A stretch of 64,000 bases of DNA. It comes from Alphaproteobacteria bacterium (GTDB lineage Bacteria > Pseudomonadota > Alphaproteobacteria > MPNO01 > UBA830). Shown here in pieces: positions 41,695-51,768 of this stretch. The notes below the pieces were generated by a model. It was given only the letters and a program-made list of their open reading frames with translations. It was not told the origin of the DNA and did no database searches. The translations under genes were made by a program, and so were the position numbers. The stretch covers positions 3,808,001 through 3,872,000 of the forward strand of contig OZ251539.1 of NCBI GenBank assembly GCA_965243135.1, in the 5' to 3' direction. How positions within the stretch are numbered: position 1 is the first letter of the stretch; every line of letters starts with the position of its first letter.

Positions 41695-41779
41695 TCGCCC
41701 TGAGCAGTAACGATGTCCTCCTGGCGTCGTTCTGGCAACCCGTGACGAGAGGTCTTGCCGGAGAGACGACTCGACCAAG

Positions 41780-42665
41780 CTCCGTTATCGGATTTTGCCT
41801 ACCGTCAGCGGCAATGCGAGCGCGGTGCTTGCGCATCCGACAACCGAAGCGCCGGAGCAACGTGTCGCTCGGACGGCAAGCCGACACTCACGACATGTTC
41901 TTGACCTGCCTACTCGGCACCCGTGCCAACCCGTTTCCGACCGTCGTCTGGCACCGCCCGGAGATCGAGTCAGAAAGAGCAAAGGCGGGGCATTCGATCG
42001 TGCGTCCGCTCCGGGCGATGAGCGAGAAAACGACGAAGCGCGTCTACGCACGGGGCGAGGTCCGGCCAACCGGACTCTTGGGGCGCTGACATTCAACTTG
42101 ACGGAAATTCGGGGTCTGCGCCCGGACAGCTCGGCCCTGCCGGCGCACCAGGCTTTTCCGCGAGATGAAGCGCAAGCGGTTTCTTTCCGATACGCCGACG
42201 CCTCGGCAAGATGCGAGATCGAGCCGAATGGCTCGGAGACGCCCTTGGCCGCCGCTCCGTCTGCCTGCCGGCCGCCGACTCCCGGAAATCCAGAGGCCGC
42301 GTTGGGAGCGTATCGACCTCGATGGGCTCCGGCTCCCCGACACTAAGACCGTCGCCACCGTCGCGCATTCGGCCGATCCGGCCATCGCGGTGCTGCAACT
42401 CTCGATAGGCGGGACGGCAATGCCTCGGTCATCGCCGGGCCAGGATGCCGCCCGACCAGCCAAGCCCTAGCGGCGCATCCGGGATCTACGATATGCGAAT
42501 CCACCACGCACGCCGCACGCGAAAACTTCGCCAGCGGTGGTCCGACAAGTTGCTCGGCCATACCCGGGATACCCGGGGCACCGCTCGCTGCGGCCATATT
42601 GCCGACGATTCCGTCAAGACCGCCGACCTCACCGCCACCGCGAAAATCAACTGGATGGCATCTTG
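41780..42665 (+). pseudogene. Tyrosine recombinase/integrase, heavily degraded
   Basis: Fragments: SNVSLGRQAD (arm domain), ANRTLGAL..FNLTEIRGLRPD, MKRKRFLSD, RWERIDL..LRLPDTKT, MRIHH..R, KLLGHT..TARCGHIADDSVK. Confidence 0.7.
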
Positions 42666-42713
42666 ACAAAAGATGACGGCTAGCTTTTTTTGTACGCATG
42701 TATACGTCGTTCC

Positions 42714-42926
42714 ATGATCGGTGACGAATTTGTACGGCGAGTCCGAAGGCTTGGCAGGGAGCGGGGCATTGCGGTGCGCTTCGAATCCCGAAAAGGCAAG
42801 GGAAGCCATGGTCGCCTTTACTACGGGGACCGTTTCGCCACGGTCAAGGATCGCCGCAAAGAAATTAGCCAAGGTCTCCTCGCGGCCATGATCCGGCAAC
42901 TCGGGATATCCCGAGAAGACATCTGA
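42714..42926 (+). CDS. hicA: HicA family toxin
   Basis: GKGSHGRLYYG..TVKD..KEIS.GLL..MIRQLGI. Confidence 0.88.
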   Translation: MIGDEFVRRVRRLGRERGIAVRFESRKGKGSHGRLYYGDRFATVKDRRKEISQGLLAAMIRQLGISREDI

Positions 42927-42943
42927 GGGAACGAAAGAATCAC

Positions 42944-43384
42944 ATGACGATACAATCGATGCGGCTGGCGTATCCTGTCAGACTGAAGGCGGAGGAAGGG
43001 GGAACGGTGCTGGCGTCGTTTCCCGACATCCCGGAGGCCTTGACGGAAGGCGCTACGGAGCGGGAGGCGCTAGCGGAAGCTGAGGATTGCCTTGTCGCCG
43101 CTCTCAGCGGATACGTTGAGTGCCGCCGCGACATTCCACGGCCGTCGCCGGAGAGAGGGCGCCCACTCGTTTCGTTGCCCGCGCTAGTCGCCGCCAAGGT
43201 CGCTCTCTACCGCGCGATGCGCGATTGCGGGATCGGCAATGCTGCGCTGGCCAAGGAATTGGGAACCGTGGAGGGGACGGTCCGGCGCTTGCTCGACCTC
43301 GACCACCGGTCGCACATCGGGCAAGTCGAGGCGGCGCTTCATGTCTTGGGACAGCGCTTGGTGGTGGCGACACGGGCTGCATAG
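42944..43384 (+). CDS. hicB: HicB family antitoxin
   Basis: YPVRL..ASFPDIPEALTEGAT..EAL..AEDCL; C-terminal HTH. Confidence 0.9.
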   Translation: MTIQSMRLAYPVRLKAEEGGTVLASFPDIPEALTEGATEREALAEAEDCLVAALSGYVECRRDIPRPSPERGRPLVSLPALVAAKVALYRAMRDCGIGNAALAKELGTVEGTVRRLLDLDHRSHIGQVEAALHVLGQRLVVATRAA

Positions 43385-43389
43385 TGATC

Positions 43390-43430
43390 CCGAAGCGTGC
43401 GCTTGCCCCGCTTCGGTCATGATCTTTATT
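43390..43430 (+). terminator. Hairpin after hicB
   Basis: CCGAAGCG...CGCTTCGG inverted repeat followed by a T-rich stretch. Confidence 0.4.
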
Positions 43431-43436
43431 AGCAGA

Positions 43437-44230
43437 GTAGAGTCGAGGACTGGCGCGTTAGCGTTAGGGTCCGGTGGATGTTTCGTCGCTTTCGCTCCGG
43501 GCCTCAGTCCGGCTTCCGTGGCCACGTGTCCCCGCTCTCCGAACCAGACGTGCGGATCTCCCGCGCCTCCAGCCATGCGTCTCGCCCACGGATGATTTGG
43601 CAGCGTTCCCGGAACGGCCGGTCTTCCGGACCCGGGAGTTGCACCGTCTCCCATTTCCGCCTGTTCCCGCTTTCCGTCGCCGAGCCTGTTTACGCCTCGA
43701 CGGTCCCGGCCTCTCGACCGGGTTCCTTCGCTTCTGCATGCGGCGCTTCCGGGATCTCCGACATGTGGCCGGTTGTTAGGCATAGCCCCTTCTCCCTTGC
43801 GGCACCCTTCCTCGCGCCCCTTTCCTCCGCCGACGTTACCCGGCTTCTCCGGTACTACGGGCCTCTCCGCCACCCGCCGGCCTGCCCCTCGCGGGGTTCC
43901 GGTTGACTCGTGCGCGTCACCGACAGGGTTTCCCGTGTTGCTGCTTCCTTCATCTTCCATGCGTGCCGACACCCCGGCGGAAACGGTCGGTGCTTTTGTC
44001 GTTCTCTTCCCGACCGTCGGCCGCTTTCCCCTGGTTTCCAGAGAGTCAGCTTCCTCATGGCATGTTTCGAGGCCTGGTTTACTCGCGTTTCGGCCCGCAT
44101 GTTCGCTGAGCGGCCTTCGCCGCCCTTTTTCCAGAGTGCTTCAGCCTACGCTCCGTAAGCCGCCCCGGCTGACCGGAACGACAGTTGTTGAGTCGCACCC
44201 ACCAGAAGAAAGCGCCTTTCCACGGCGCAC
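43437..44230 (-). mobile_element. Group II intron with the RT ORF internally deleted (about 794 nt)
   Basis: 5' GTGCGCCGTGGAAAGGCGC; degenerate domain V GCGCGGGAGATCCGCACGTCTGGTTCGGAGAGCGGG; 3' end CTCGACTCTAC; CGGAGAGGCCCGTAGTACCGGAGAAGCCGGGTAAC and GGAGGAAAGGGGC domain II/III-type motifs. Confidence 0.82.
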
Positions 44231-44289
44231 GGAAACAATCAAGCAATGAAGCAGAAACTTACCCCAACATGTATCGATCTTCGTACTCG

Positions 44290-44470
44290 GCGTGAACGGT
44301 CATCGCGAACTTCTCAAGCTGCTTGAAGGTAAGCTAGAAATCGCCGCTCTCCCATTCACGGTATTTTGGGAACTTGCGAACCAGCGAAGCGACAACCGCG
44401 CCGACGCGCTCGCATTCCCGACGCAGCAGTTCCTGCTTGACGTCGACGCGAAAAGTTATCGCCGCTCCCA
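44290..44470 (-). pseudogene. N-terminal HTH fragment of an XRE-ImmA/IrrE family protein
   Basis: RVDVKQELLRRECERVG..SLVRKFPKYREWESGDF*LTFKQLEKFA. Confidence 0.5.
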
Positions 44471-44729
44471 TGCCTAGAAATGCTGCAACCTGTCGTGCGG
44501 TTGCTCGTCATAGTGCCACCCTTCGTGAAAAGTCTCGAAGAAATGGATGCGCTACCATTCGTCGAGACCGTAGATGCCGGCGACACGGCATCAAGTTCAT
44601 GGATCATATCTTGCCAACCTATGCCGCCGACGGGTCCATTGGAGAGGTCCATGGATCTAGCCAAAATGGCGGCGCGTTCATCCGGAAAGGTGAAGCGTCC
44701 GGCAAGCTCAACGACTCGCCATTCTCCAA

Positions 44730-46592
44730 CTAACCGCAGCGACGACCGTGGCACTCCTTGATGGGACCGTGATTATCTATCTGATACTGCGTACGACCAC
44801 AGTACACACAGGTTTCGTAGTACATTTGTTCCTCACGCTGTATATTGGTAGATTCCCTTGATCTTTTTTCGAGGAAATTTGGTCTCCAAATACTCACCAA
44901 GTCGCCCGGTATCAATCGCCAATCTTCGTCCATCGAGATATTGGACCGTAACGTAACCTTGAACTTGAACGAATCAGTCATTGTATGTTGAGTTTCACTT
45001 TTGGAATTCTTTTTTTTTGAGCCCGATTGGACGAATTTATTGTCGTATCTCGCTTCAGAATCCCTACCATTCACATTTGACAAATTCAGACAGAAATCAA
45101 GATTGTGTATCTCGGTTTCAACCATTTCTCGCCGACCTTTAGAGATCAACCTTATATGTGCCACATAGTCATGGTCAATTTGGATTTCACATTCTAGGCG
45201 TTCCAGAAAAGGACGTGCCTTCGGGTCGACAGGTAAATTAAGAGAGGCAAGCTTTACCCTCTCATCATTTTCCTGTAAAAGTCCGACTTTGCGTGGTTTA
45301 GCGAACTCAAACACCGCGGATCCGTCTCGCGGATCAATACAAAAGAAGCGTTTGCTGCAAACAGGAATAATTTCATTCTCCACAGGTAGGATTTGGGTTG
45401 TGTCGACCAAGGGCAAACAACTGCCACGTCCGATTCCGTCAGATACCAATACCTCAAGCGGCTTCGCCAAGGTAAGCCTTAATCCGTCGTGGGCAATCCA
45501 AGCAGCTCCTTCCGCGATTATCCTGTCACGATTGGAAAGGTCAGGTACGCGAGTACCAAATCGTTCGACCAATCCATTCCAAATTGCCGGCATGTTCACC
45601 ATCCCACCGGTTGCTATGCAGAGCTCAATATCGCTACGATCAAGAAGCGCTTCCTCAAGAAGCTGATCAATTTTGGAAAGACCTCGTTGGACCAAGTCCT
45701 CGGAAAGAAGTTCAAGTTCATTTCTTGTTATGTCCACGGAAAGATTTCGTTCAGGACCACTACTACGGAGATAGTCTTTAGCGATTACCGTAAAGAGGTC
45801 TTCGCTCGAAAGAGCTATCTTCGCTTGCTCGCATTGTGTTAACAGTTTGGCCGACGAACCTGGCTGCTCAAGAGCGTTAACGTCCTTAATACCATACGGC
45901 TCTGTGTGTTTGTTCCTAATTTGATTACGAAGCCGCTCGTCAAATCGATCCCCGCCTATTTCATTATTCCCTAGATTAGCAATTTGCATAATGGTTCCTC
46001 CCAATACCCGGCAAACGGTCAGGTCAAGGGTGCCGCCGCCCCAATCAAAGACAAGAACGACCTTGTTCTCCAGTCTAGAAAGTTCTTGACTGAAGTTTGG
46101 TTTCGAACGCACGTAAGCGTACAGTGCTGCCGCGGGTTCTTGGACGAACTGAAGCACACCAATTCCTGCTTTTCTAGCGGCAGCACGCAAGGCGCGACGT
46201 TGAGGTCCGGCGAAATCTACCGGGATAGTCATTACGGCACGCGAAATTTCGTATCCATCCGTATCTCGATCAGCCGCATTTCTCCGAATATATGAAAGAA
46301 CTTCCGCAACAATATCAATCGGGTCAACAGCTTTGCCGAGAATATGTACCGCCCCTTCCCTTCGCAAACTCATTTTTGGGGAGCGGACGAAGCCATGCGC
46401 GGCGTCGGTTTCCAACGATTGAAGATGCCCTTTCGCCTCCCGCCCAACAATTATCTCGGCACCCCGGTACCAAACGACTGAAGGATGTGGTTTGTCGTCT
46501 TCATCGGTCAGAGTCTGAACCTCATCTCCGATAACGAACGCCGCAAGACTGTTGGTCGTGCCGAAATCCACCCCAAAGGTCAAGTCACTCAT
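44730..46592 (-). CDS. Atypical Hsp70-family protein with a Cys-rich C-terminal tail
   Basis: GVDFGTTNS, PSVV, AVMTIPVDF, EPAAA, VFDWGGGTLD, IGGDRFD, CEQAKIALS, TGG..NMP; C-terminus CVYC...ECHGRRC. Confidence 0.9.
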   Translation of the reverse strand: MSDLTFGVDFGTTNSLAAFVIGDEVQTLTDEDDKPHPSVVWYRGAEIIVGREAKGHLQSLETDAAHGFVRSPKMSLRREGAVHILGKAVDPIDIVAEVLSYIRRNAADRDTDGYEISRAVMTIPVDFAGPQRRALRAAARKAGIGVLQFVQEPAAALYAYVRSKPNFSQELSRLENKVVLVFDWGGGTLDLTVCRVLGGTIMQIANLGNNEIGGDRFDERLRNQIRNKHTEPYGIKDVNALEQPGSSAKLLTQCEQAKIALSSEDLFTVIAKDYLRSSGPERNLSVDITRNELELLSEDLVQRGLSKIDQLLEEALLDRSDIELCIATGGMVNMPAIWNGLVERFGTRVPDLSNRDRIIAEGAAWIAHDGLRLTLAKPLEVLVSDGIGRGSCLPLVDTTQILPVENEIIPVCSKRFFCIDPRDGSAVFEFAKPRKVGLLQENDERVKLASLNLPVDPKARPFLERLECEIQIDHDYVAHIRLISKGRREMVETEIHNLDFCLNLSNVNGRDSEARYDNKFVQSGSKKKNSKSETQHTMTDSFKFKVTLRSNISMDEDWRLIPGDLVSIWRPNFLEKRSRESTNIQREEQMYYETCVYCGRTQYQIDNHGPIKECHGRRCG

Positions 46593-47637
46593 TCGGTTTC
46601 TCCAATCGAGACCGTACCGCCTTCATGGCCATATTAATACGTTGAACAGCTGCCGTTGCATTGGGCGGTATAAACTCCAGTGCATCTAACGCATCGGAAA
46701 GCGGCGGCTTTAATCGATCTTCCAAGAAGCCTCGAAATTGCCCGTTTCGTGTTCTTTCATCGAGCTCCCGCAATTTTTTTTGTTCATCCAATTGTTTTTC
46801 AACCTTGCAGAGTTGATCGGAGAGACGGATTCGTTCTCTTTTCGCAATTTCCAAATCGCTAGTGGTCGCGTTCAGTTTCATCTCCATAAGATTCATATCT
46901 TCTCCGAGCTTCGATAACTGGGCGAAAGTTTGCCGCGCATCCTTTGTTTTCTCCTCGACAATAGCCTCAAAATAATTGGCAATCAACGCCAGATCATGGA
47001 GGTGATTTAATTTAGCAATTTTGACTAGCCGAACTGTGGCAGCATGGACGCCAGTATTCGTTACTGGCGCTTTTTTAGATTTAATTTTTCTCACAGATAA
47101 AAGTGCATCATCAGGTTTCAAATTACGCTCATCCACCAGCCAATTCAGAGCGAGACGCAAGAAGTTTTGCGCTTTTGTTCGACGGGCTTTATCTTTATCA
47201 GAAAGGTGTTCAGAAAGCGTCTGTACGATCCGGCCGAATAACTCATTAGGAGACATATCCTCGTTCGATGACGCGCCCGGCATATAGTGATCTAGCGAAA
47301 TCTTTGTTGCTCTCGCAATCCATTTGTTGATTGGATCCGGTCCCTTTCCCACAAGCGACACAGTTCGAACTAATGTTGGATCAGCGACTTCAAGTTCTTG
47401 GATAGCTTTCGACATGTCATCCGCATCGAAGATCTTGATCTTCGCTTTCCGCACGCATTTACAGAAGGCCAACGGCTTAATCCGAGGATCGGAGTAGTAT
47501 AGAGAAATCTGAGGTTCTATGGGGATCTCCCTCTGTTCATCTCCGTTGACGTTTGGTTTCATGGCGTTCATACTCTTTCGACTAAGATCATTCTGCAGCT
47601 GGACGTCAGGTTCAGTCTCTTCGGTTGGCATCGTCAA
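46585..47637 (-). CDS. Hypothetical protein with a C-terminal coiled coil
   Basis: 350 aa, overlapping both neighbours; heptad-like charged helices (LSKLGEDMNLMEMKLN..LEIAKRERIRLSDQL). Confidence 0.75.
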   Translation of the reverse strand: MTMPTEETEPDVQLQNDLSRKSMNAMKPNVNGDEQREIPIEPQISLYYSDPRIKPLAFCKCVRKAKIKIFDADDMSKAIQELEVADPTLVRTVSLVGKGPDPINKWIARATKISLDHYMPGASSNEDMSPNELFGRIVQTLSEHLSDKDKARRTKAQNFLRLALNWLVDERNLKPDDALLSVRKIKSKKAPVTNTGVHAATVRLVKIAKLNHLHDLALIANYFEAIVEEKTKDARQTFAQLSKLGEDMNLMEMKLNATTSDLEIAKRERIRLSDQLCKVEKQLDEQKKLRELDERTRNGQFRGFLEDRLKPPLSDALDALEFIPPNATAAVQRINMAMKAVRSRLEKPNE

Positions 47638-48818
47638 AGCTCCTCTATATCCTCAAGGCAACTGGTTGCCCATTCCCCGAACGGATATGTCGAACTCAAT
47701 AGCCTTAACGGATCGATAGCATCCGCAGCAACATCCAATCGCAGACTCGTCGACGCCCAAAGTGCATATATTTTCAAGCGATCGCTCATCGTCAGTGTCG
47801 TTTCATTGGCGTATTTATTGCACTTTTCCCGTAATGCCGTTTCCCATCTCGTCGAGGAACCGAGTTGCACGAAAAAATCAAGAATATGATCTGTTGCTTC
47901 ATCAATCGGGCAGATTGGGATTACCCCCTCAACTCCGAAGTGCAACGCAGGCGGGCGGATCAAAATTTTTGATGACTTATCGGGATCTACTTTCGAGGCT
48001 TCAGCCTCGTTTCTAAGCAGTGCAGCGAGCATTGAATTACACCAATCAAGCCTCCTAAAACCCGAGCGCGATTCGACAGCGCTAAAATCATTGAAGGTAA
48101 ACCGCACAACTGCGCTGATCACCATGGCTAACGGCCGCGTAAAATCCTTCAATCCGTCAAGCGCTTTACCATAAAGGCTGTCAGCCTCGGAAGGCGGCAA
48201 GGTGACGCCAGTCACCTGATCCTTCACGAGCACAGCTCGGACATACGATCCTAATGCGTCGGCGTAATCTCGAACGACGCCGTGGCAACGGCTATCCTTT
48301 AAAAATGCAGCGACCTGTTGCATGCTGGGTTCGTCGTGCGTCAAGTGTTCCTTGAACGCTAGGTCGACTTCGTCCAAAGACGTTTTGTCGGGTATCCGAA
48401 GCTCAAAATAATATTGTTGATAAACTGGGCTTGCCACATTATCGAAACGATTGGCAAGTTGAATTTTGATATTTGCATCTGTCTTTTGGGACAGTAGTTT
48501 CGGAACATCGTGCGGAGACACTTCTTTCTTCGCCAACCCATTAACTTCGATATACGCTGTTGAACTGTTCTTTATGCCAATCTGCGCAGCTGCCAACGGC
48601 TGGGTAAACCTCGAAGATTGATCCGGTTCCCGTCCGCTAACCATTAATATTGGTCGTTCACCCACATGTTTCAAAGATAAATGGTCATTCAGAGAACGCT
48701 GGTCATCAAAGCGTTCACCGCAAAACGGACACGGTAGAAGCTGTTTCCCCGGTGTCAAAGGTAACGGTAGCGGCGAAGAACGAAGCATGTCGTCTTCATA
48801 GTATGAAGCGAATCCCAA
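47634..48818 (-). CDS. Hypothetical protein with an N-terminal C2H2 zinc finger
   Basis: CPFCGERFDDQRSLNDHLSLKH fits C-x2-C-x3-F-x5-L-x2-H-x4-H; TTG start with GGAG RBS. Confidence 0.8.
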   Translation of the reverse strand: MGFASYYEDDMLRSSPLPLPLTPGKQLLPCPFCGERFDDQRSLNDHLSLKHVGERPILMVSGREPDQSSRFTQPLAAAQIGIKNSSTAYIEVNGLAKKEVSPHDVPKLLSQKTDANIKIQLANRFDNVASPVYQQYYFELRIPDKTSLDEVDLAFKEHLTHDEPSMQQVAAFLKDSRCHGVVRDYADALGSYVRAVLVKDQVTGVTLPPSEADSLYGKALDGLKDFTRPLAMVISAVVRFTFNDFSAVESRSGFRRLDWCNSMLAALLRNEAEASKVDPDKSSKILIRPPALHFGVEGVIPICPIDEATDHILDFFVQLGSSTRWETALREKCNKYANETTLTMSDRLKIYALWASTSLRLDVAADAIDPLRLLSSTYPFGEWATSCLEDIEEL

Positions 48819-49407
48819 GTGCTTATCACTCCAATCAATCTACGGAATTGGCTAGCTACACAGAGCTTCAGAACAGCGCGGCATGACCAAATCAATAGTT
48901 CGTTTTGAATGGCTCAGAAAGTTGCGGTTCACTGAGAGCCCTTGACCGCTCGGAAAGCCGCAACAAGCGGACTGAAGCCCGCTCAGCCGAAGTATATGCA
49001 CAAAACTTCGCTCGGCGCAAGTCATCAAAGGTGATGGCGAGGTCCTTTGACCGGATTTCTCAGACGCGGTCGTTTGCGGCAGGGGCGGAGTCTGGGCGGA
49101 TGGACATCGTAACGGCCCTTCCGCGATACGCCGAACTAAATGACTTCAGGTGCGGATTTATCGATAACGTTGCCTCTGTCAGCGGCTCAGACCGCAGTAT
49201 TGCCGGCCGTCAAGAGAAGTCGTCGGAAAGAAGATAGCCGGCGTCGGCGATGGTCGGGCCTTGCTGGTTTTCGGTTCCGGGGCGTCTGGCACCGGGACGG
49301 AGCGCCTGCGGGACCCCTGCCCGACGAGAGGTTTACAGGAAGGCGCACAGCCGAAAAAGAAAAACGCACGGCTTGACGCCAAGCAATACGTGTACTATAT
49401 ACGACAC

Positions 49408-49761
49408 ATGACGCACTTCGGCGATACGGCCCGCGAAATCCGCGAACGCCTTCGCGGCGACGATCGGCGCTATTCGCTCCGCCAGGTCGCGGGACGGGTC
49501 GGAATCGAACCGGCCTATCTGAGCAAGATCGAGCGCGGCGACGTGGCGCCTCCGTCGGAAGCCACGACAAGGCGACTGGCGGAGGAACTCGATCAGGACC
49601 CGGATGTGTTCCTGGCGCTGGCGGGAAAGGTGTCCCGCGATCTGCAGGACATCATTCGCAAGCGGCCGGAACTTTTCGCGGAGCTGATCCGGCAGCTGAA
49701 GGACGCGCCGGACAGCGCAATCCTCCGCGTGGTGCGCGAGGTGCGGGACGGCGAATGGTGA
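49408..49761 (+). CDS. XRE-family HTH transcriptional regulator
   Basis: SLRQVAGRVGIEPAYLSKIERG..PPSE. Confidence 0.88.
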   Translation: MTHFGDTAREIRERLRGDDRRYSLRQVAGRVGIEPAYLSKIERGDVAPPSEATTRRLAEELDQDPDVFLALAGKVSRDLQDIIRKRPELFAELIRQLKDAPDSAILRVVREVRDGEW

Positions 49762-49776
49762 AAGGGAGAAATTGCC

Positions 49777-50772
49777 ATGATCACGCTCGAAGCCGACAGG
49801 CTGGAATTCCGTTTTCCGGAGGTTCACGAGGACGCGCGTTGCGTCATCGAATTTCAGCGCACGCTGCGCATTCCCGACGACGGCGGAACTTATCCGTTGC
49901 CGCCGGGCCTGGGGAGGTTCCCGTTGCGGCATCTGGACGACCATGCGGAGAGGCTGCCGGAGGACTGGCTGCGCCGCGGCGGAGTGATCGCTCCCATGCA
50001 CCAGGCGGAGGCGCTTTGGATCAACTTCAGCTCTTACGATTACCCGTGCGCGGTGAAGATCGCGACCGGCAAGATATGCGCGGTGACGGGCGACAACTGG
50101 ATCGATCACCTGAACGGCGATCCCCAGGACTACGTCGTCGTCCCCGAACAGCCGTGGCTTGACGGTTACTGCGTCGAAAAGGGCGTGATCCGGCAGTTCG
50201 TCGCCATGCCGCTCGGCGAGGGCTACACGGCGGAAGAGCAATTGACGGGCGCTGCGCGGCACGGCGGATTGCAGCTTCTCGTATGTCCCATGAAGAGGGA
50301 ACGATACGAGGCGATAACGGAGGACAATGCGGTTTTTAGCGTCAAAGCGCTCTATTGTGCGTCGCCTGCCATGGGACTGGCGCCGGGCGGGCGCATGAAG
50401 CAGGAAATTTACGATGACCCTCACGGTCTGGACGCTTGGGATCAGCGCCAGGTCCGTCGCTGCTTCGTCACCATCGCCAATTCCGCTCAGTGGACGGATA
50501 TCACCGGCGAACGGCCGCCGACCGAACCGCCGACTGCGAAAAGCTACGCGGAGGCGGGGCTGCCGTGGTTCGACTATTACGGCGGCGACCTGAAAGTTCG
50601 TCCCGGAGCCGAAAAGCTCGCCGGACTCGCAAGCGTCGCGGAAACCGCGTCGAAAAAGGGCGACCCGCCGCCGGCCGGCAACGAATCGCTCGACGTGACC
50701 CTCGACGTGACCAAGGTGCTCCCGATTCGAGCGCCGGGCGCGAACCGCGTGAGGGAACCCGAACCGATCTGA
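49777..50772 (+). CDS. Conserved hypothetical protein
   Basis: FQRTLRIPDD..YPLPPGLG.FP, PMHQAEALWINF, QDYVV.P.QPWLDG, IRQFVAMPLG.GYT.E.Q, GLAPGG..KQ.IY.D, Y...GLPWF.YY; strong RBS. Confidence 0.75.
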   Translation: MITLEADRLEFRFPEVHEDARCVIEFQRTLRIPDDGGTYPLPPGLGRFPLRHLDDHAERLPEDWLRRGGVIAPMHQAEALWINFSSYDYPCAVKIATGKICAVTGDNWIDHLNGDPQDYVVVPEQPWLDGYCVEKGVIRQFVAMPLGEGYTAEEQLTGAARHGGLQLLVCPMKRERYEAITEDNAVFSVKALYCASPAMGLAPGGRMKQEIYDDPHGLDAWDQRQVRRCFVTIANSAQWTDITGERPPTEPPTAKSYAEAGLPWFDYYGGDLKVRPGAEKLAGLASVAETASKKGDPPPAGNESLDVTLDVTKVLPIRAPGANRVREPEPI

Positions 50773-50829
50773 GGCTTCAGCCTCGTTGCCGGCCTGAGCC
50801 GGCGCGCGCGGAGAACTGCGCACGCCGGC

Positions 50830-51768
50830 TCAGGCGGCCTCGCGGCCGTAGCGGTGAAGTTGCGTCCCGTGATCCCGCAGCCATTGACGGGAACCCTCGA
50901 ACCCGGGGCAAATTTTCCCGACCAGCGCCCAGAAACGGGGTCCGTGATTGAGTTCCCGGAGATGCGCCATCTCGTGGGCGATCACGTAGTCGAGAACGTG
51001 CTGGGGCCCGAGCACGAGACGCCAGCTGAGGCTGATGTTGCCCTCTCTCGAACAACTCCCCCAGCGCGAGCTCATATCCCGAAGGGTCACTTGCCGCGGC
51101 TTGCGGCCCACCCGGGTCGAGGCGGCGCGGATGCGCGGCTCGATTTCCCGGCACGCCTGATCGACGATCCAGTGGTGAACGCGGTCGGACAGCGTCTCCT
51201 CGCGGCCTCCGACGACAAGGATGTTTCCGTCGAGAACGGGCGGGGCGGATCTTCCTTGGTCGCGCCGGATCGTGACGGTTTCGCCGAGCAAGGGAAAGGT
51301 TGCGCCGTCCCTGAAAGGCGCCGGCCCGCCGACTTCAGCAAGCCGTCGCGAGATCCAGGCCGTCTGTCCGCGCGCGAACTTCATTCCCTCTTCGAGCGTC
51401 ATTCCCGGCGGCAGAACGAGTTCGAGCTCGCCGTCATGCGGACTTATGCGAAGCGCCACGCGGCGCGCGCGAGCGCTGCGGCGAGGCCGCACCGGGACGG
51501 TCCGTCCGTCGCGCAACGTGATCGACACCGCTGCGACGCCGCCGTTGTCGGGCGGCGCGGTTGCCGAATCGATCTGCCGAGCGATCCATTCCGCTTCGCG
51601 CTGCGCGAGGCGCATTCCTTCTTCCAGCGTCGCGCCGGGCGGCAACACGATCACGAGCGCGCCGCTGCGGCGATCCACGCGAAGCGAGATGCGCCGCGCC
51701 CTTCGACTGCGCCGCGCATGCGCGGGGACGGTTCGTCCGTCGGCCAGCGTAACTGTCTTTTCCCTCAA
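50830..51768 (-). CDS. M48/YgjP-like (DUF45) metallopeptidase with a duplicated N-terminal module
   Basis: SRWGSCS, LSWRL, DYVIAHEMAHL..NHGPRFW; TTG start overlapping the MFS stop. Confidence 0.82.
   Translation of the reverse strand: MREKTVTLADGRTVPAHARRSRRARRISLRVDRRSGALVIVLPPGATLEEGMRLAQREAEWIARQIDSATAPPDNGGVAAVSITLRDGRTVPVRPRRSARARRVALRISPHDGELELVLPPGMTLEEGMKFARGQTAWISRRLAEVGGPAPFRDGATFPLLGETVTIRRDQGRSAPPVLDGNILVVGGREETLSDRVHHWIVDQACREIEPRIRAASTRVGRKPRQVTLRDMSSRWGSCSREGNISLSWRLVLGPQHVLDYVIAHEMAHLRELNHGPRFWALVGKICPGFEGSRQWLRDHGTQLHRYGREAA

Follow-up and report, generated by a model that had tools for sequence, protein, structure and literature searches.

We analysed a window of 64,000 nt from an Alphaproteobacteria bacterium (GTDB MPNO01; UBA830; GCA_965243135.1, contig OZ251539.1, positions 3,808,001-3,872,000, forward strand). 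The open reading frames bore out the original prediction of three intact co-oriented genes, here called g1, g2 and g3 (Table 1), which overlap by 4 bp (g1/g2, 47634-47637) and by 8 bp (g2/g3, 46585-46592). The start codon of g1 is TTG, with GGAG 10 nt upstream. This cassette had also been described as more AT-rich than its flanks, and in 500-nt windows the GC content was indeed 0.45-0.53 over 44500-48999 versus 0.57-0.74 in the flanks.

Table 1. Coordinates of the cassette genes, their parts and the surrounding island within the window
Feature	Position	Strand	Residues	Description
g1	47634..48818	-	1-394	ORF, 394 aa, C2H2 finger/TPR-like putative adaptor
g1 finger	48666..48731	-	30-51	classical C2H2, C-x2-C-x12-H-x4-H; C30, C33, H46, H51
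g1 beta-sandwich			53-141	
g1 helical repeat			144-394	TPR-like
g2	46585..47637	-	1-350	ORF, 350 aa, coiled-coil protein
g2 N-terminus				disordered
g2 helical domain			44-188	
g2 single helix			211-321	~110 residues
g2 loop			315-325	DAxDAL-x-F-x-PP, conserved
g3	44730..46592	-	1-620	ORF, 620 aa, lidless Hsp70
g3 NBD	45489-46592	-	1-368	
g3 linker + SBD-beta	45078-45488	-	369-505	
g3 spacer				low complexity, between SBD-beta and tail domain
g3 tail domain	44733-44990	-	535-620	~85-residue 4-Cys domain
g3 zinc ribbon	44736..44810	-		4-Cys; C595, C598, C614, C619
Island	41700..50830			about 9 kb, bears the cassette; from comparison with related genomes

In six related genomes (G005, G007, G008, G010, G011 and G012), the EamA/hydrolase genes that reach to about 41694 in the window adjoin the YgjP/MFS genes that begin at about 50830, and a search of 20 related genomes gave no match to the cassette DNA. 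Also on the island are HicA/HicB, an XRE gene paired with an unknown gene, and a multi-copy repeat bearing an intron-like piece. Decayed neighbours had been predicted, namely an integrase, an intron and an ImmA fragment. Only the intron stood, as a sub-threshold match to group II intron D1-D4 (43962-44187, minus strand; E 6.5e-7, 32.7 bits where the gathering score is 49). The integrase and the ImmA fragment did not: no integrase catalytic domain was matched in the window, the frames of 41.7-42.7 kb had no Pfam matches, and no ImmA-like match was obtained.

Domain structure of the three proteins

g3 matched the Pfam family HSP70 (PF00012) over residues 6-368 (E 1.2e-52, 179.5 bits versus a cut-off of 20.6), with the alignment ending at profile position 373 of 599. 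By the criteria of the Hsp70 superfamily, it has an actin-fold NBD with the phosphate-1, phosphate-2 and adenosine motifs, and both catalytic residues, Lys and Glu, are there. The ATPase motifs and the CxxC...C...C tail claimed for this protein are both present: phosphate-1, K73, E152, DWGGGTLD and GGMVNMP are kept in 76-78 of 78 homologues, as are the linker and SBD residues, and DFGTTNS is kept in 74-76 of 78 sequences. When the family profile was aligned with the genome's own DnaK by hhalign (probability 99.9), the two were colinear over DnaK residues 1-491, including the interdomain linker and the beta-sandwich SBD. The alpha-helical lid is absent, since beyond about residue 505 nothing aligns to the DnaK lid. 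The tail domain had no PDB sequence match and weakly resembles the CSL zinc finger (E 0.05 here, 0.0048 in locus L005); in some relatives (L005/L063, L007 and likewise L080), the zinc ribbon is a separate small ORF. A weak MreB/ParM-type Pfam similarity of g3 was also recorded (E 7.1e-8).

The known Hsp70 types were then compared with g3 by their models. DnaK was rejected (NF001413, 167.8 versus 648 bits; TIGR02350, 166.4 versus 822.55), as were HscA (TIGR01991 and NF003520, 162 bits versus 620-708; HscA models overall, 125-162 bits versus cut-offs of 620-743) and YegD (NF008673, 55.9 versus 331 bits). No HscC model was among the NCBIfam matches of g3. A housekeeping locus of the HscC/YegD type had been named in advance as one outcome that would speak against the original prediction; overall, the DnaK, HscA and YegD models scored 56-168 bits against cut-offs of 331-1019. 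The predicted lack of DnaJ and GrpE nearby was also confirmed. The window contains no J-domain, the nearest lying about 310 kb outside it, and neither a J-domain nor a GrpE gene was found near the cassette; the genome's own grpE-dnaK-dnaJ is at 4.729-4.733 Mb, and the window at 3.808-3.872 Mb.

The C2H2 finger proposed for g1 fits the classical definition (CPFC-x3-F-x5-L-x2-H-x4-H), including the conserved Phe and Leu. Its score against Pfam zf-C2H2_4 was 20.3 bits, under the cut-off of 27, and the g1 family profile matched solved C2H2 fingers (2i13, E 8.3e-8). Of 72 homologues, 71 retain all four ligands, and in an alignment of 71 sequences, the invariant positions were C30, C33, H46, H51, P56, N243, D306, D346 and K349. 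The AlphaFold2 model of g1 had a pLDDT of 80.2. Fold searches gave no enzyme fold and no clear match for g1, only repeat or Ig-like ones (best Z 8.3), and no Pfam family was found above its cut-off.

As for g2, the long coiled coil announced earlier corresponds to one predicted helix (pLDDT about 80-96; 73.8 for the whole model). This protein is without a Pfam family and evolves fast, with only six positions at least 90% conserved among 57 sequences. Fold searches gave no match with Z >= 8 for g2, and the best matches of g1 and g2 were generic repeats and coiled coils (Z <= 8.3). In locus L013, g1 and g2 are fused in frame as one open frame. Complex prediction for g2 and g3 gave scores of 0.05, 0.60 and 0.57 (median 0.57), with 0.00 for the best control, at least 48% of contacts in agreement between runs and a partner pLDDT of at least 71. 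When the score was calibrated on 157 solved complexes and 215 mismatched pairs, 116 and 2, respectively, reached the mark; only 18 of the solved complexes, and both of the mismatched pairs that passed, did so at a score of 0.60 or below. These models weakly suggest that g2 and g3 may associate physically. A cryptic effector fold had been envisaged within the cassette. None came to light: Pfam and fold searches recognised no nuclease, toxin or membrane domain in g1-g3.

Distribution and neighbourhood of the cassette

Across 185,579 species genomes, searches with Hsp70 subfamily patterns, confirmed by tblastn, gave up to 431 places; for the g1 family, 519 clusters (50% identity) were counted at E <= 1e-30. 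We examined the best 80 of the 431 places and counted gene order in those 79 loci whose sequence upstream of g3 extended for at least 2.3 kb. It had been set beforehand that the prediction would depend on a gene order conserved across distant taxa. g1 was found upstream of g3 on the same strand in 75 of these 79 loci, and a g2 profile match lay between them in 64; in the remaining g1-bearing loci, a single open frame occupied the gap, 395-513 aa long except in L069 (307 aa). The hosts belong to the Alpha-, Beta-, Gamma-, Delta- and Epsilonproteobacteria, Acidobacteriota, Verrucomicrobiota, Gemmatimonadota, Actinomycetota, Armatimonadota and Rhodothermales; among the 79 loci, the order spans at least nine phyla or classes. 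The cassette moves horizontally between many bacterial phyla. One copy was on a conjugative Paenarthrobacter plasmid, 8 loci had integrases nearby and 6 had serine recombinases, and no relatives were found in viral contigs.

Defence context was scored as a PADLOC match at E <= 1e-10 within 3 kb of the cassette. Such matches were present at 49 of the 79 loci (40 of them strong), absent at 30, and found in 53 of 247 cluster representatives. Passed through the identical pipeline, 80 housekeeping dnaK loci, a control of one gene from Alphaproteobacteria only, gave matches at 12 of 77 loci and in 3 of 131 representatives. The enrichment near defence genes that had been put forward for checking was thus found (Fisher p 2e-9), with PADLOC matches transferred from cluster representatives to members and related loci not independent of one another.

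The cassette was also seen inside known systems. The arrangement PglX-cassette-PglZ(-BrxL), all on one strand, occurred in L066, L076, L078 and L084. PglX was likewise upstream in L091, where a GmrSD gene precedes PglZ, and in L095, which has PglZ downstream at a distance of about 1.6 kb. The loci L082 and L086 showed no PglX next to the cassette; downstream came GmrSD (L082) or Septu PtuAB (L086), then PglZ. HmaC-cassette-HmaB was found in L045 and L054. An EVE/McrB-like gene lay directly downstream in six of the 79 loci (L026, L036, L039, L041, L044 and L064); in four of these, L036, L039, L044 and L064, McrC comes next. BREX genes were within 3 kb in 11 of the 79 loci, Hma genes in 6 more, and neither in 62; the systems hosting or adjoining the cassette vary and include Wadjet and R-M of types I and III besides BREX, Hma and McrBC. 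The pglX-pglZ gap is a published slot for embedded systems, with genes there in ~7000 of ~9000 BREX loci (PMC11341690). Hma is another such slot, in which 7 of 9 embedded candidates protected against phage (10.1101/2024.01.29.577857).

Comparison with named systems

The original prediction had recognised no named system in the cassette. PADLOC-DB v2.0.0, including the PDC and HEC candidates, likewise returned 0 families for g1, g2 and g3 at E <= 0.1, and literature searches brought up no description of the cassette. CnuD/CnuCD of type III CoCoNuT (Bell et al., eLife 2024, PMC11090510) resembles g3 in having an Hsp70 NBD and SBD in predicted defence loci; coiled-coil proteins stand alongside, in superoperons with BREX and R-M, and CnuD and the cassette are both computational predictions. 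The same paper gives McrB-type NxD GTPases (CnuB) and McrC homologues (CnuC) as the CnuD partners, with HEAT repeats and degenerate Walker A-like motifs. In contrast, the cassette has intact ATPase motifs, a zinc ribbon tail, C2H2/TPR and different coiled-coil partners, and no GTPase in its conserved unit. We therefore rejected CnuD by domains (the four-Cys tail versus HEAT-like repeats, and DFGTTNS kept) and type III CoCoNuT by partners, the unit being g1-g2-g3 only, with no AAA_5 or McrBC Pfam match in g1 or g2.

BrxU/GmrSD, PARIS and HEC-01 to HEC-09 share with the cassette their slots (the pglX-pglZ gap and Hma) and their mobility from one host system to another (PMC11341690; 10.1101/2024.01.29.577857). 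Within one BREX island, the cassette even lies beside a GmrSD gene (L091, L082) or Septu (L086). The embedded BREX/Hma systems described in these papers carry ABC ATPases, nucleases or RNases, whereas the cassette has none of these. The GTPase-centred conflict systems of Kaur et al. (eLife 2020, PMC7159879) likewise include Hsp70 as a predicted conflict component; they have GAP1-N2 or DO-type GTPases, often with tubulin, GrpE and J-domains, none of which was found in or beside the cassette. A TAC system, defined as a SecB-like chaperone with a toxin and a ChAD antitoxin, was rejected because the chaperone here is an Hsp70 and no SecB, toxin or antitoxin family was found in g1-g3 (Pfam, NCBIfam). 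Membership of BREX (type 1), taken as PglZ and PglX together in one locus or genome, was rejected: no PglZ was matched in the window's genome (98.8% complete), and in other genomes the BREX loci carry the cassette as a passenger. Dedicated Hsp70s with private partners, possibly with a single client motif, are known from HscA-HscB-IscU and from E. coli HscC with DjlB/DjlC. The cassette resembles these in its dedicated Hsp70 and private partners, and differs in having no J-domain partner, in being mobile and in its link to defence.

Interpretation and possible mode of action

The anatomy of the genes, their conservation and mobility, their setting in defence islands and their lack of a name were all observed. 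On our reading, the cassette is probably an anti-phage or anti-mobile-element system of three genes, autonomous and horizontally mobile, with a dedicated, ATPase-competent, lidless Hsp70 at its centre (probability about 0.6), and a role in defence is somewhat favoured. Besides the conserved unit, its mobility, the defence context and the embedding, further points were counted for this reading. The conservation of the g3 motifs, linker and SBD and of the g1 finger ligands points to functional constraint, the fused frame of L013 and, weakly, the g2-g3 prediction to physical linkage, and autonomy is suggested by the window's genome, which has no PglZ and whose DUF499 genes are more than 350 kb from the cassette. 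Weighing against it are the failure of Pfam and fold searches to recognise an effector domain and the 30 of 79 loci that showed no PADLOC match within 3 kb. Because the cassette moves between phyla and sits among or inside known anti-phage systems, it is a strong candidate for an undescribed chaperone-based immune system.

The same-strand embedding in BREX and Hma operons, within tens of bases of PglX/PglZ or HmaC/HmaB, would also fit an accessory chaperone that assembles, regulates or rescues BREX, Hma or McrBC and has no defence activity on its own. Hsp70s are known to serve as assembly factors, and the McrB-like gene directly downstream in six loci agrees with such a role. We regard it as quite unlikely, however, since the window's genome offers no such partner in PglZ or in nearby DUF499 genes, most loci have neither BREX nor Hma genes within 3 kb, the hosting systems vary, and three BREX islands hold the cassette beside the known autonomous systems GmrSD or Septu. 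Moreover, PMC11341690 describes the pglX-pglZ slot as a general insertion site for independent systems.

An actin-fold ATPase with a coiled coil and a DNA-binding finger might instead act in partition, addiction or counter-defence of a carrier element. The integrases or recombinases near 14 loci, the plasmid-borne copy, the position beside HicAB on the island and the MreB/ParM-type similarity of g3 all point that way. This is nevertheless improbable: the ATPase is clearly an Hsp70, with a linker and SBD-beta colinear with DnaK, not ParM, no viral relative was found, and many copies lie within chromosomal defence operons without mobility genes. A specialised housekeeping Hsp70 of the HscA/HscC/YegD type, serving one cellular client and unrelated to conflict, is very improbable. 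Its private partners and the lack of a J-protein or GrpE are reminiscent of the atypical E. coli Hsp70s, and the conserved PP loop of g2 recalls a client motif, but the distribution is patchy (the cassette was not found in 20 relatives), the GC content is low, the neighbourhood is enriched for defence genes, and the models of known types score far under their cut-offs.

For the anti-phage system that we favour, a mode of action may be proposed, each step of which is tentative and, taken singly, rather doubtful. g1 would be the sensor and adaptor: nucleic acid or a partner would be bound by its finger, and protein by the beta-sandwich and the TPR-like repeat. g2 would be a coiled-coil scaffold tying g1 to the Hsp70, in place of the absent J-protein and GrpE. 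The LPPVK motif of IscU enters HscA, and the conserved F-x-P-P loop of g2 may likewise enter the substrate cleft of g3, which would use ATP to clamp or remodel a target. Because no nuclease, toxin or membrane domain was recognised, we would favour over a suicide effector a direct action in which ATP is spent to sequester or remodel a protein or nucleoprotein complex of the phage. Inside BREX or Hma, the target could be an anti-restriction protein. PARIS guards host systems against such phage proteins. It is conceivable, though unlikely, that the cassette represents a new class of immunity in prokaryotes with Hsp70 as the executing enzyme. In such a system, the zinc-finger/TPR protein would act as sensor and the coiled-coil protein as co-factor, and together they would direct the private lidless Hsp70 against a protein or nucleoprotein assembly of the phage. 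Clamping or unfolding driven by ATP would then neutralise this target, and neither a nuclease nor an NADase, membrane or nucleotide-signalling effector would take part. Within BREX or Hma, the cassette would guard the host system against anti-restriction proteins as PARIS does, by chaperone action.

The cassette identifies one recurrent occupant of the pglX-pglZ gaps, of which about 5000 of the ~7000 occupied hold no known system (PMC11341690). By the counts of Hsp70 places and g1 clusters given above, it is common enough for study, and its partner proteins g1 and g2 both stand outside Pfam. None of the usual effector domains is present in it. Should it prove protective against phages, this would show that immunity can be executed by a chaperone cycle alone, and the cassette would be a defined, tractable case of Hsp70 function with neither J-protein nor GrpE. 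Should it turn out to serve BREX or Hma as an accessory instead, it would bear on the assembly or triggering of those poorly understood complexes.

The cassette and its island

The original prediction described three co-oriented genes joined by 4-bp and 8-bp overlaps, and the ORFs, all on the minus strand, agree with it: g1 encodes a zinc-finger protein, g2 a coiled-coil protein and g3 an Hsp70. Translation of g1 starts at a TTG that has a GGAG 10 nt before it; the N-terminal motif MGxASY.ED is common to the relatives. The AT-richness noticed earlier was also found, with a GC content of 0.45 to 0.53 over 44500-48999 versus 0.57 to 0.74 in the flanks. A scan for promoters and terminators stayed near the shuffled expectation (7 versus 4.9 and 10 versus 5.9, respectively).

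In six related genomes (G005, G007, G008, G010, G011 and G012), a few hundred bases separate the EamA/hydrolase genes from the YgjP/MFS genes, so the island (window positions ~41.7-50.8 kb) represents an insertion. The cassette DNA had no match in any of the 20 related genomes searched. Neither a tRNA nor flanking att-like direct repeats were found at the island ends. An intron, an integrase and an ImmA fragment had been read as decayed neighbors; the intron piece was recovered as a subthreshold group II match, while no integrase catalytic domain was present in the window and no ImmA-like match was found. The intron-like match lies within an ~800-bp repeat that has at least 14 further copies in the genome at 85 to 93% identity, some spanning only the last ~420 bp, and that lacks a reverse transcriptase ORF at this site. 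Pfam searches of the frames at 41.7-44.7 kb gave nothing besides HicA/HicB.

Two other gene pairs share the island. The HicA (78 amino acids [aa]) and HicB (146 aa) genes are intact, with Pfam scores each slightly under the gathering cutoffs, and similar DNA occurs at other places in two related genomes (G004 and G017). On the other side, an XRE-type helix-turn-helix gene (166 aa) is followed, after a gap of 16 nt, by a 331-aa gene without a Pfam family. Since copies of this pair with 73 to 75% DNA identity stand at other sites in three related genomes (G001, G004 and G017), the two genes look like a mobile module in their own right.

Features of the cassette and its island (window positions)
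Feature	Position	Strand	Description
g1	47634-48818	-	ORF, 394 aa
g2	46585-47637	-	ORF, 350 aa
g3	44730-46592	-	ORF, 620 aa
Group II intron D1-D4 match, subthreshold	43962-44187	-	E 6.5e-7
Repeat	43437-44237		~800 bp
HicA/HicB pair	42690-43384
XRE-type gene and 331-aa gene	49261-50772

Architecture of the three proteins

The model of g1 (pLDDT of 80) has three parts. The predicted classical C2H2 finger held up, its ligands being kept in 71 of 72 sequences and its profile matching solved fingers at an E value of 8.3e-8; it is followed by a beta-sandwich (residues 53 to 141) and a TPR-like helical repeat (residues 144 to 394). Across 71 sequences, five residues (P56, N243, D306, D346 and K349) never vary. 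D306...D346-x-x-K349 was considered as a PD-(D/E)xK motif, and this reading was rejected because the model is all-helical at those residues. In the ESM Atlas, g1 gave only short C2H2 clusters at 0.77, under the useful range.

The long coiled coil claimed for g2 corresponds to a single helix of ~110 residues (211 to 321), preceded by a helical domain (residues 44 to 188). This protein has no Pfam family and no fold-search match at a Z score of 8 or more. It evolves fast, with only six positions at least 90% conserved among 57 sequences, concentrated in a DAxDAL-x-F-x-PP loop. Its conserved acidic C terminus was rejected as an EEVD-like tag because those codons overlap the g3 start codon, and the conservation may reflect this overlap rather than a functional tag. 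When g1 and g2 were searched for an enzyme or a hidden effector fold, the rows returned were all of generic TPR, Ig-like or coiled-coil type, with Z scores up to 8.3, within the tool's stated background.

Residues 6 to 368 of g3 match Pfam PF00012 (E value of 1.2e-52), and the family profile is colinear with residues 1 to 491 of the DnaK of this genome, covering the nucleotide-binding domain (NBD), the linker and the beta part of the substrate-binding domain (SBD), at a probability of 99.9. The view that all ATPase motifs are retained was upheld: 76 to 78 of 78 homologues keep the residues for catalysis and nucleotide binding, the linker residues D369, L373, L375 and K377, and several positions in the SBD. 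The protein is lidless; beyond residue ~505, a low-complexity spacer leads to a tail of ~85 residues that contains four cysteines (C595, C598, C614 and C619). Some relatives carry the zinc-ribbon tail as a separate small ORF after an Hsp70 of ~530 aa (L005:11680-11979, shared by L005/L063, and L007:4339-4605; likewise L080:9497-9973), so the tail is a module of its own. This subclade with a split-off tail constitutes a four-gene version of the cassette. The tail had no match among PDB sequences, and its similarity to the CSL zinc finger, tried as a candidate, was subthreshold. P0050 (871 aa), a remote Hsp70-subfamily member, is fused to an FGE-sulfatase domain (PF03781), a domain to which a sensor role has been ascribed in predicted conflict systems. 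As had been stated, no J-domain or GrpE gene lies nearby: none was found in the window, and grpE-dnaK-dnaJ is located elsewhere in the genome.

Links between the proteins were seen at two levels. In a metagenome contig (L013:116-2398), g1 and g2 are fused in a single open frame. For g3 with g2, complex prediction gave scores of 0.05, 0.60 and 0.57 versus 0.00 for the best control, with at least 48% contact agreement and a partner pLDDT of at least 71. Of 157 solved complexes, 116 attained the score mark, as did 2 of 215 mismatched pairs; at 0.60 or under, it was attained by only 18 of the 157 and by both of these mismatches. The prediction weakly supports a link between the two proteins and gives no interface.

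Distribution and defense-gene context

A single-protein locus search with g1 returned nothing, and alignment-based scans were needed to find the relatives; word-based protein searches, which yielded 12 proteins with g1 and 41 with the g3 C terminus, undercounted them. On contigs representing one genome per species, a pattern scan built on the Hsp70-subfamily alignment gave 504 matches, 431 of which encode a relative. The g1 profile detected 519 clusters (50% identity) at E values of 1e-30 or lower among 1.84 billion representatives; at less stringent thresholds, poly-finger proteins inflate the counts. Among the best 150 clusters, 149 are single-stretch proteins of 266 to 425 aa with no fusions. 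With 431 Hsp70-subfamily places and 519 g1 clusters, the idea that the cassette is very rare was dropped.

Co-occurrence was counted with profiles of the three proteins in the 79 loci, from the best 80 of the 431, that have at least 2.3 kb upstream of g3. The gene order proved to be conserved across taxa: in these loci, g1 lies upstream of g3 on the same strand in 75, a g2 match lies between them in 64, and both are present in 63. In the 12 loci with g1 and without a g2 match, a single open frame of 395 to 513 aa (in L069, 307 aa) spans the gap. The g1 gene is absent upstream in L033, L057, L075 and L077, and g3 is truncated in three of these four. A copy is also borne by the conjugative Paenarthrobacter plasmid pA (L100, NZ_CP094490), annotated as "hypothetical protein" and "Hsp70 family protein", where an IS3 element interrupts the g1-like gene. 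This plasmid locus has an extra 446-aa coiled-coil-like gene directly after the Hsp70 gene and two DUF262 genes upstream. No relative was found in viral contigs, and complete E. coli genomes had no match to the Yersinia-type copy.

Flanking ORFs of at least 150 aa lying no more than 3 kb away, 301 in all, were clustered, and the 247 cluster representatives were scanned with PADLOC. At E values of 1e-10 or lower, 53 of the 247 representatives matched, and after transfer from representatives to cluster members, 49 of the 79 loci had at least one match; 40 of these were rated strong and 9 weak or ambiguous (e.g., AddA-like, Lon and MotB-like). When 80 housekeeping dnaK loci were taken through the identical pipeline, 3 of 131 representatives matched and 12 of 77 loci had a match, in nine cases owing to one conserved gene. 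Enrichment near defense genes was observed (Fisher p of 2e-9, for loci that are related and a control that is a single gene family). The conserved control gene (~220 to 250 aa, found in Pelagibacter-type genomes and others at ~2 kb downstream of dnaK; L115, L117-L119, L122, L138, L170, L174 and L187) matches the PADLOC "REase_II nicking endonuclease" at an E value of 7e-21 and is probably a housekeeping gene overcalled by the PADLOC HMMs, a false positive.

Embedding inside defense operons is more telling than proximity. The order PglX-cassette-PglZ(-BrxL) on one strand occurs in L066, L076, L078 and L084. PglX is also upstream of the cassette in L091, with a GmrSD gene before PglZ, and in L095, with PglZ ~1.6 kb downstream. 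No PglX was seen beside the cassette in L082 and L086, where GmrSD and Septu PtuAB, respectively, are downstream and followed by PglZ. HmaC-cassette-HmaB was found in L045 and L054, and Hma genes adjoin the cassette in L024, L038 and L081. In six loci, the first gene downstream is EVE/McrB-like, and in four of these McrC comes after it. Further loci have type I or III restriction genes, Wadjet JetCD, AbiE, PsyrA, GmrSD or the type III CRISPR gene Cas7. The L086 locus, from a Halomonas genome, is a densely nested defense superoperon; L086:1583-14298 carries in a row, on one strand, Ppl/mad3-like, pAgo-like, cassette, Septu PtuA/PtuB, PglZ and BrxL genes.

Both embedding sites have been published. 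In the parts of Went et al. that deal with BREX loci, the pglX-pglZ gap is occupied in ~7000 of ~9000 loci, neither DefenseFinder nor PADLOC 2 knows a system in ~5000 of these gaps, and BrxU and PARIS are among the commonest known occupants (PMC11341690). For Hma, the portion of Payne et al. on "guilt by embedding" gives 7 of 9 candidates as validated (10.1101/2024.01.29.577857).

Known systems and possible function

Apart from the "Hsp70 superfamily" and the "C2H2 finger", the cassette belongs to no named family or system, in line with the original prediction. PADLOC-DB v2.0.0, including its PDC and HEC candidates, had no match. No description of the trio was found in the literature searched; the supplements of PMC11341690 and 10.1101/2024.01.29.577857 could list it unnamed. 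Within the published text covered, the closest counterpart is CnuD of type III CoCoNuTs, which has Hsp70-like NBD/SBD, HEAT repeats and a degenerate Walker A and is tied to McrB/McrC homologues (PMC11090510); each of the last three features was tested, and none was found in the cassette. The GTPase-centered systems with Hsp70, GrpE and J-domains, as outlined in PMC7159879, have only Hsp70 in common with it. In a BREX diversity survey (PMC12839542), the words chaperone and DnaK are absent from the main text, and no mention of Hsp70 in it came up in the literature search.

The cassette is a conserved, mobile, selectively maintained and unnamed three-gene unit with an active-looking Hsp70, found in defense islands and inside defense operons. 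The proposal of a defense function came through the comparative tests that were run, and we infer from sequence comparison that the cassette is a candidate autonomous anti-phage or anti-mobile-element system, with a probability of about 0.6. The neighborhoods with PglX/PglZ, Hma and McrBC genes could also be read as those of a chaperone that serves BREX, Hma or McrBC as an accessory, which we consider improbable; in the window's genome, the cassette stands alone beside the HicAB and XRE pairs, there is no PglZ, and the DUF499 genes are more than 350 kb away. A module for mobile-element maintenance or counter-defense is slightly more improbable still. A specialized housekeeping Hsp70 is very improbable; g3 falls outside DnaK, HscA and YegD by the NCBIfam cutoffs.

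For the candidate defense system, a tentative mechanism, doubtful as a whole, is our best guess. The g1 protein would sense the target, its finger recognizing nucleic acid or a partner and its TPR and sandwich parts recognizing protein. The g2 protein would scaffold the complex and substitute for the J-protein and GrpE, its PP loop perhaps being offered to the SBD, and the Hsp70 would clamp or remodel a phage component. No effector domain is visible in the cassette proteins. The interest of the cassette lies in its being without a conventional effector, unnamed, widespread and embedded in well-studied defense operons.
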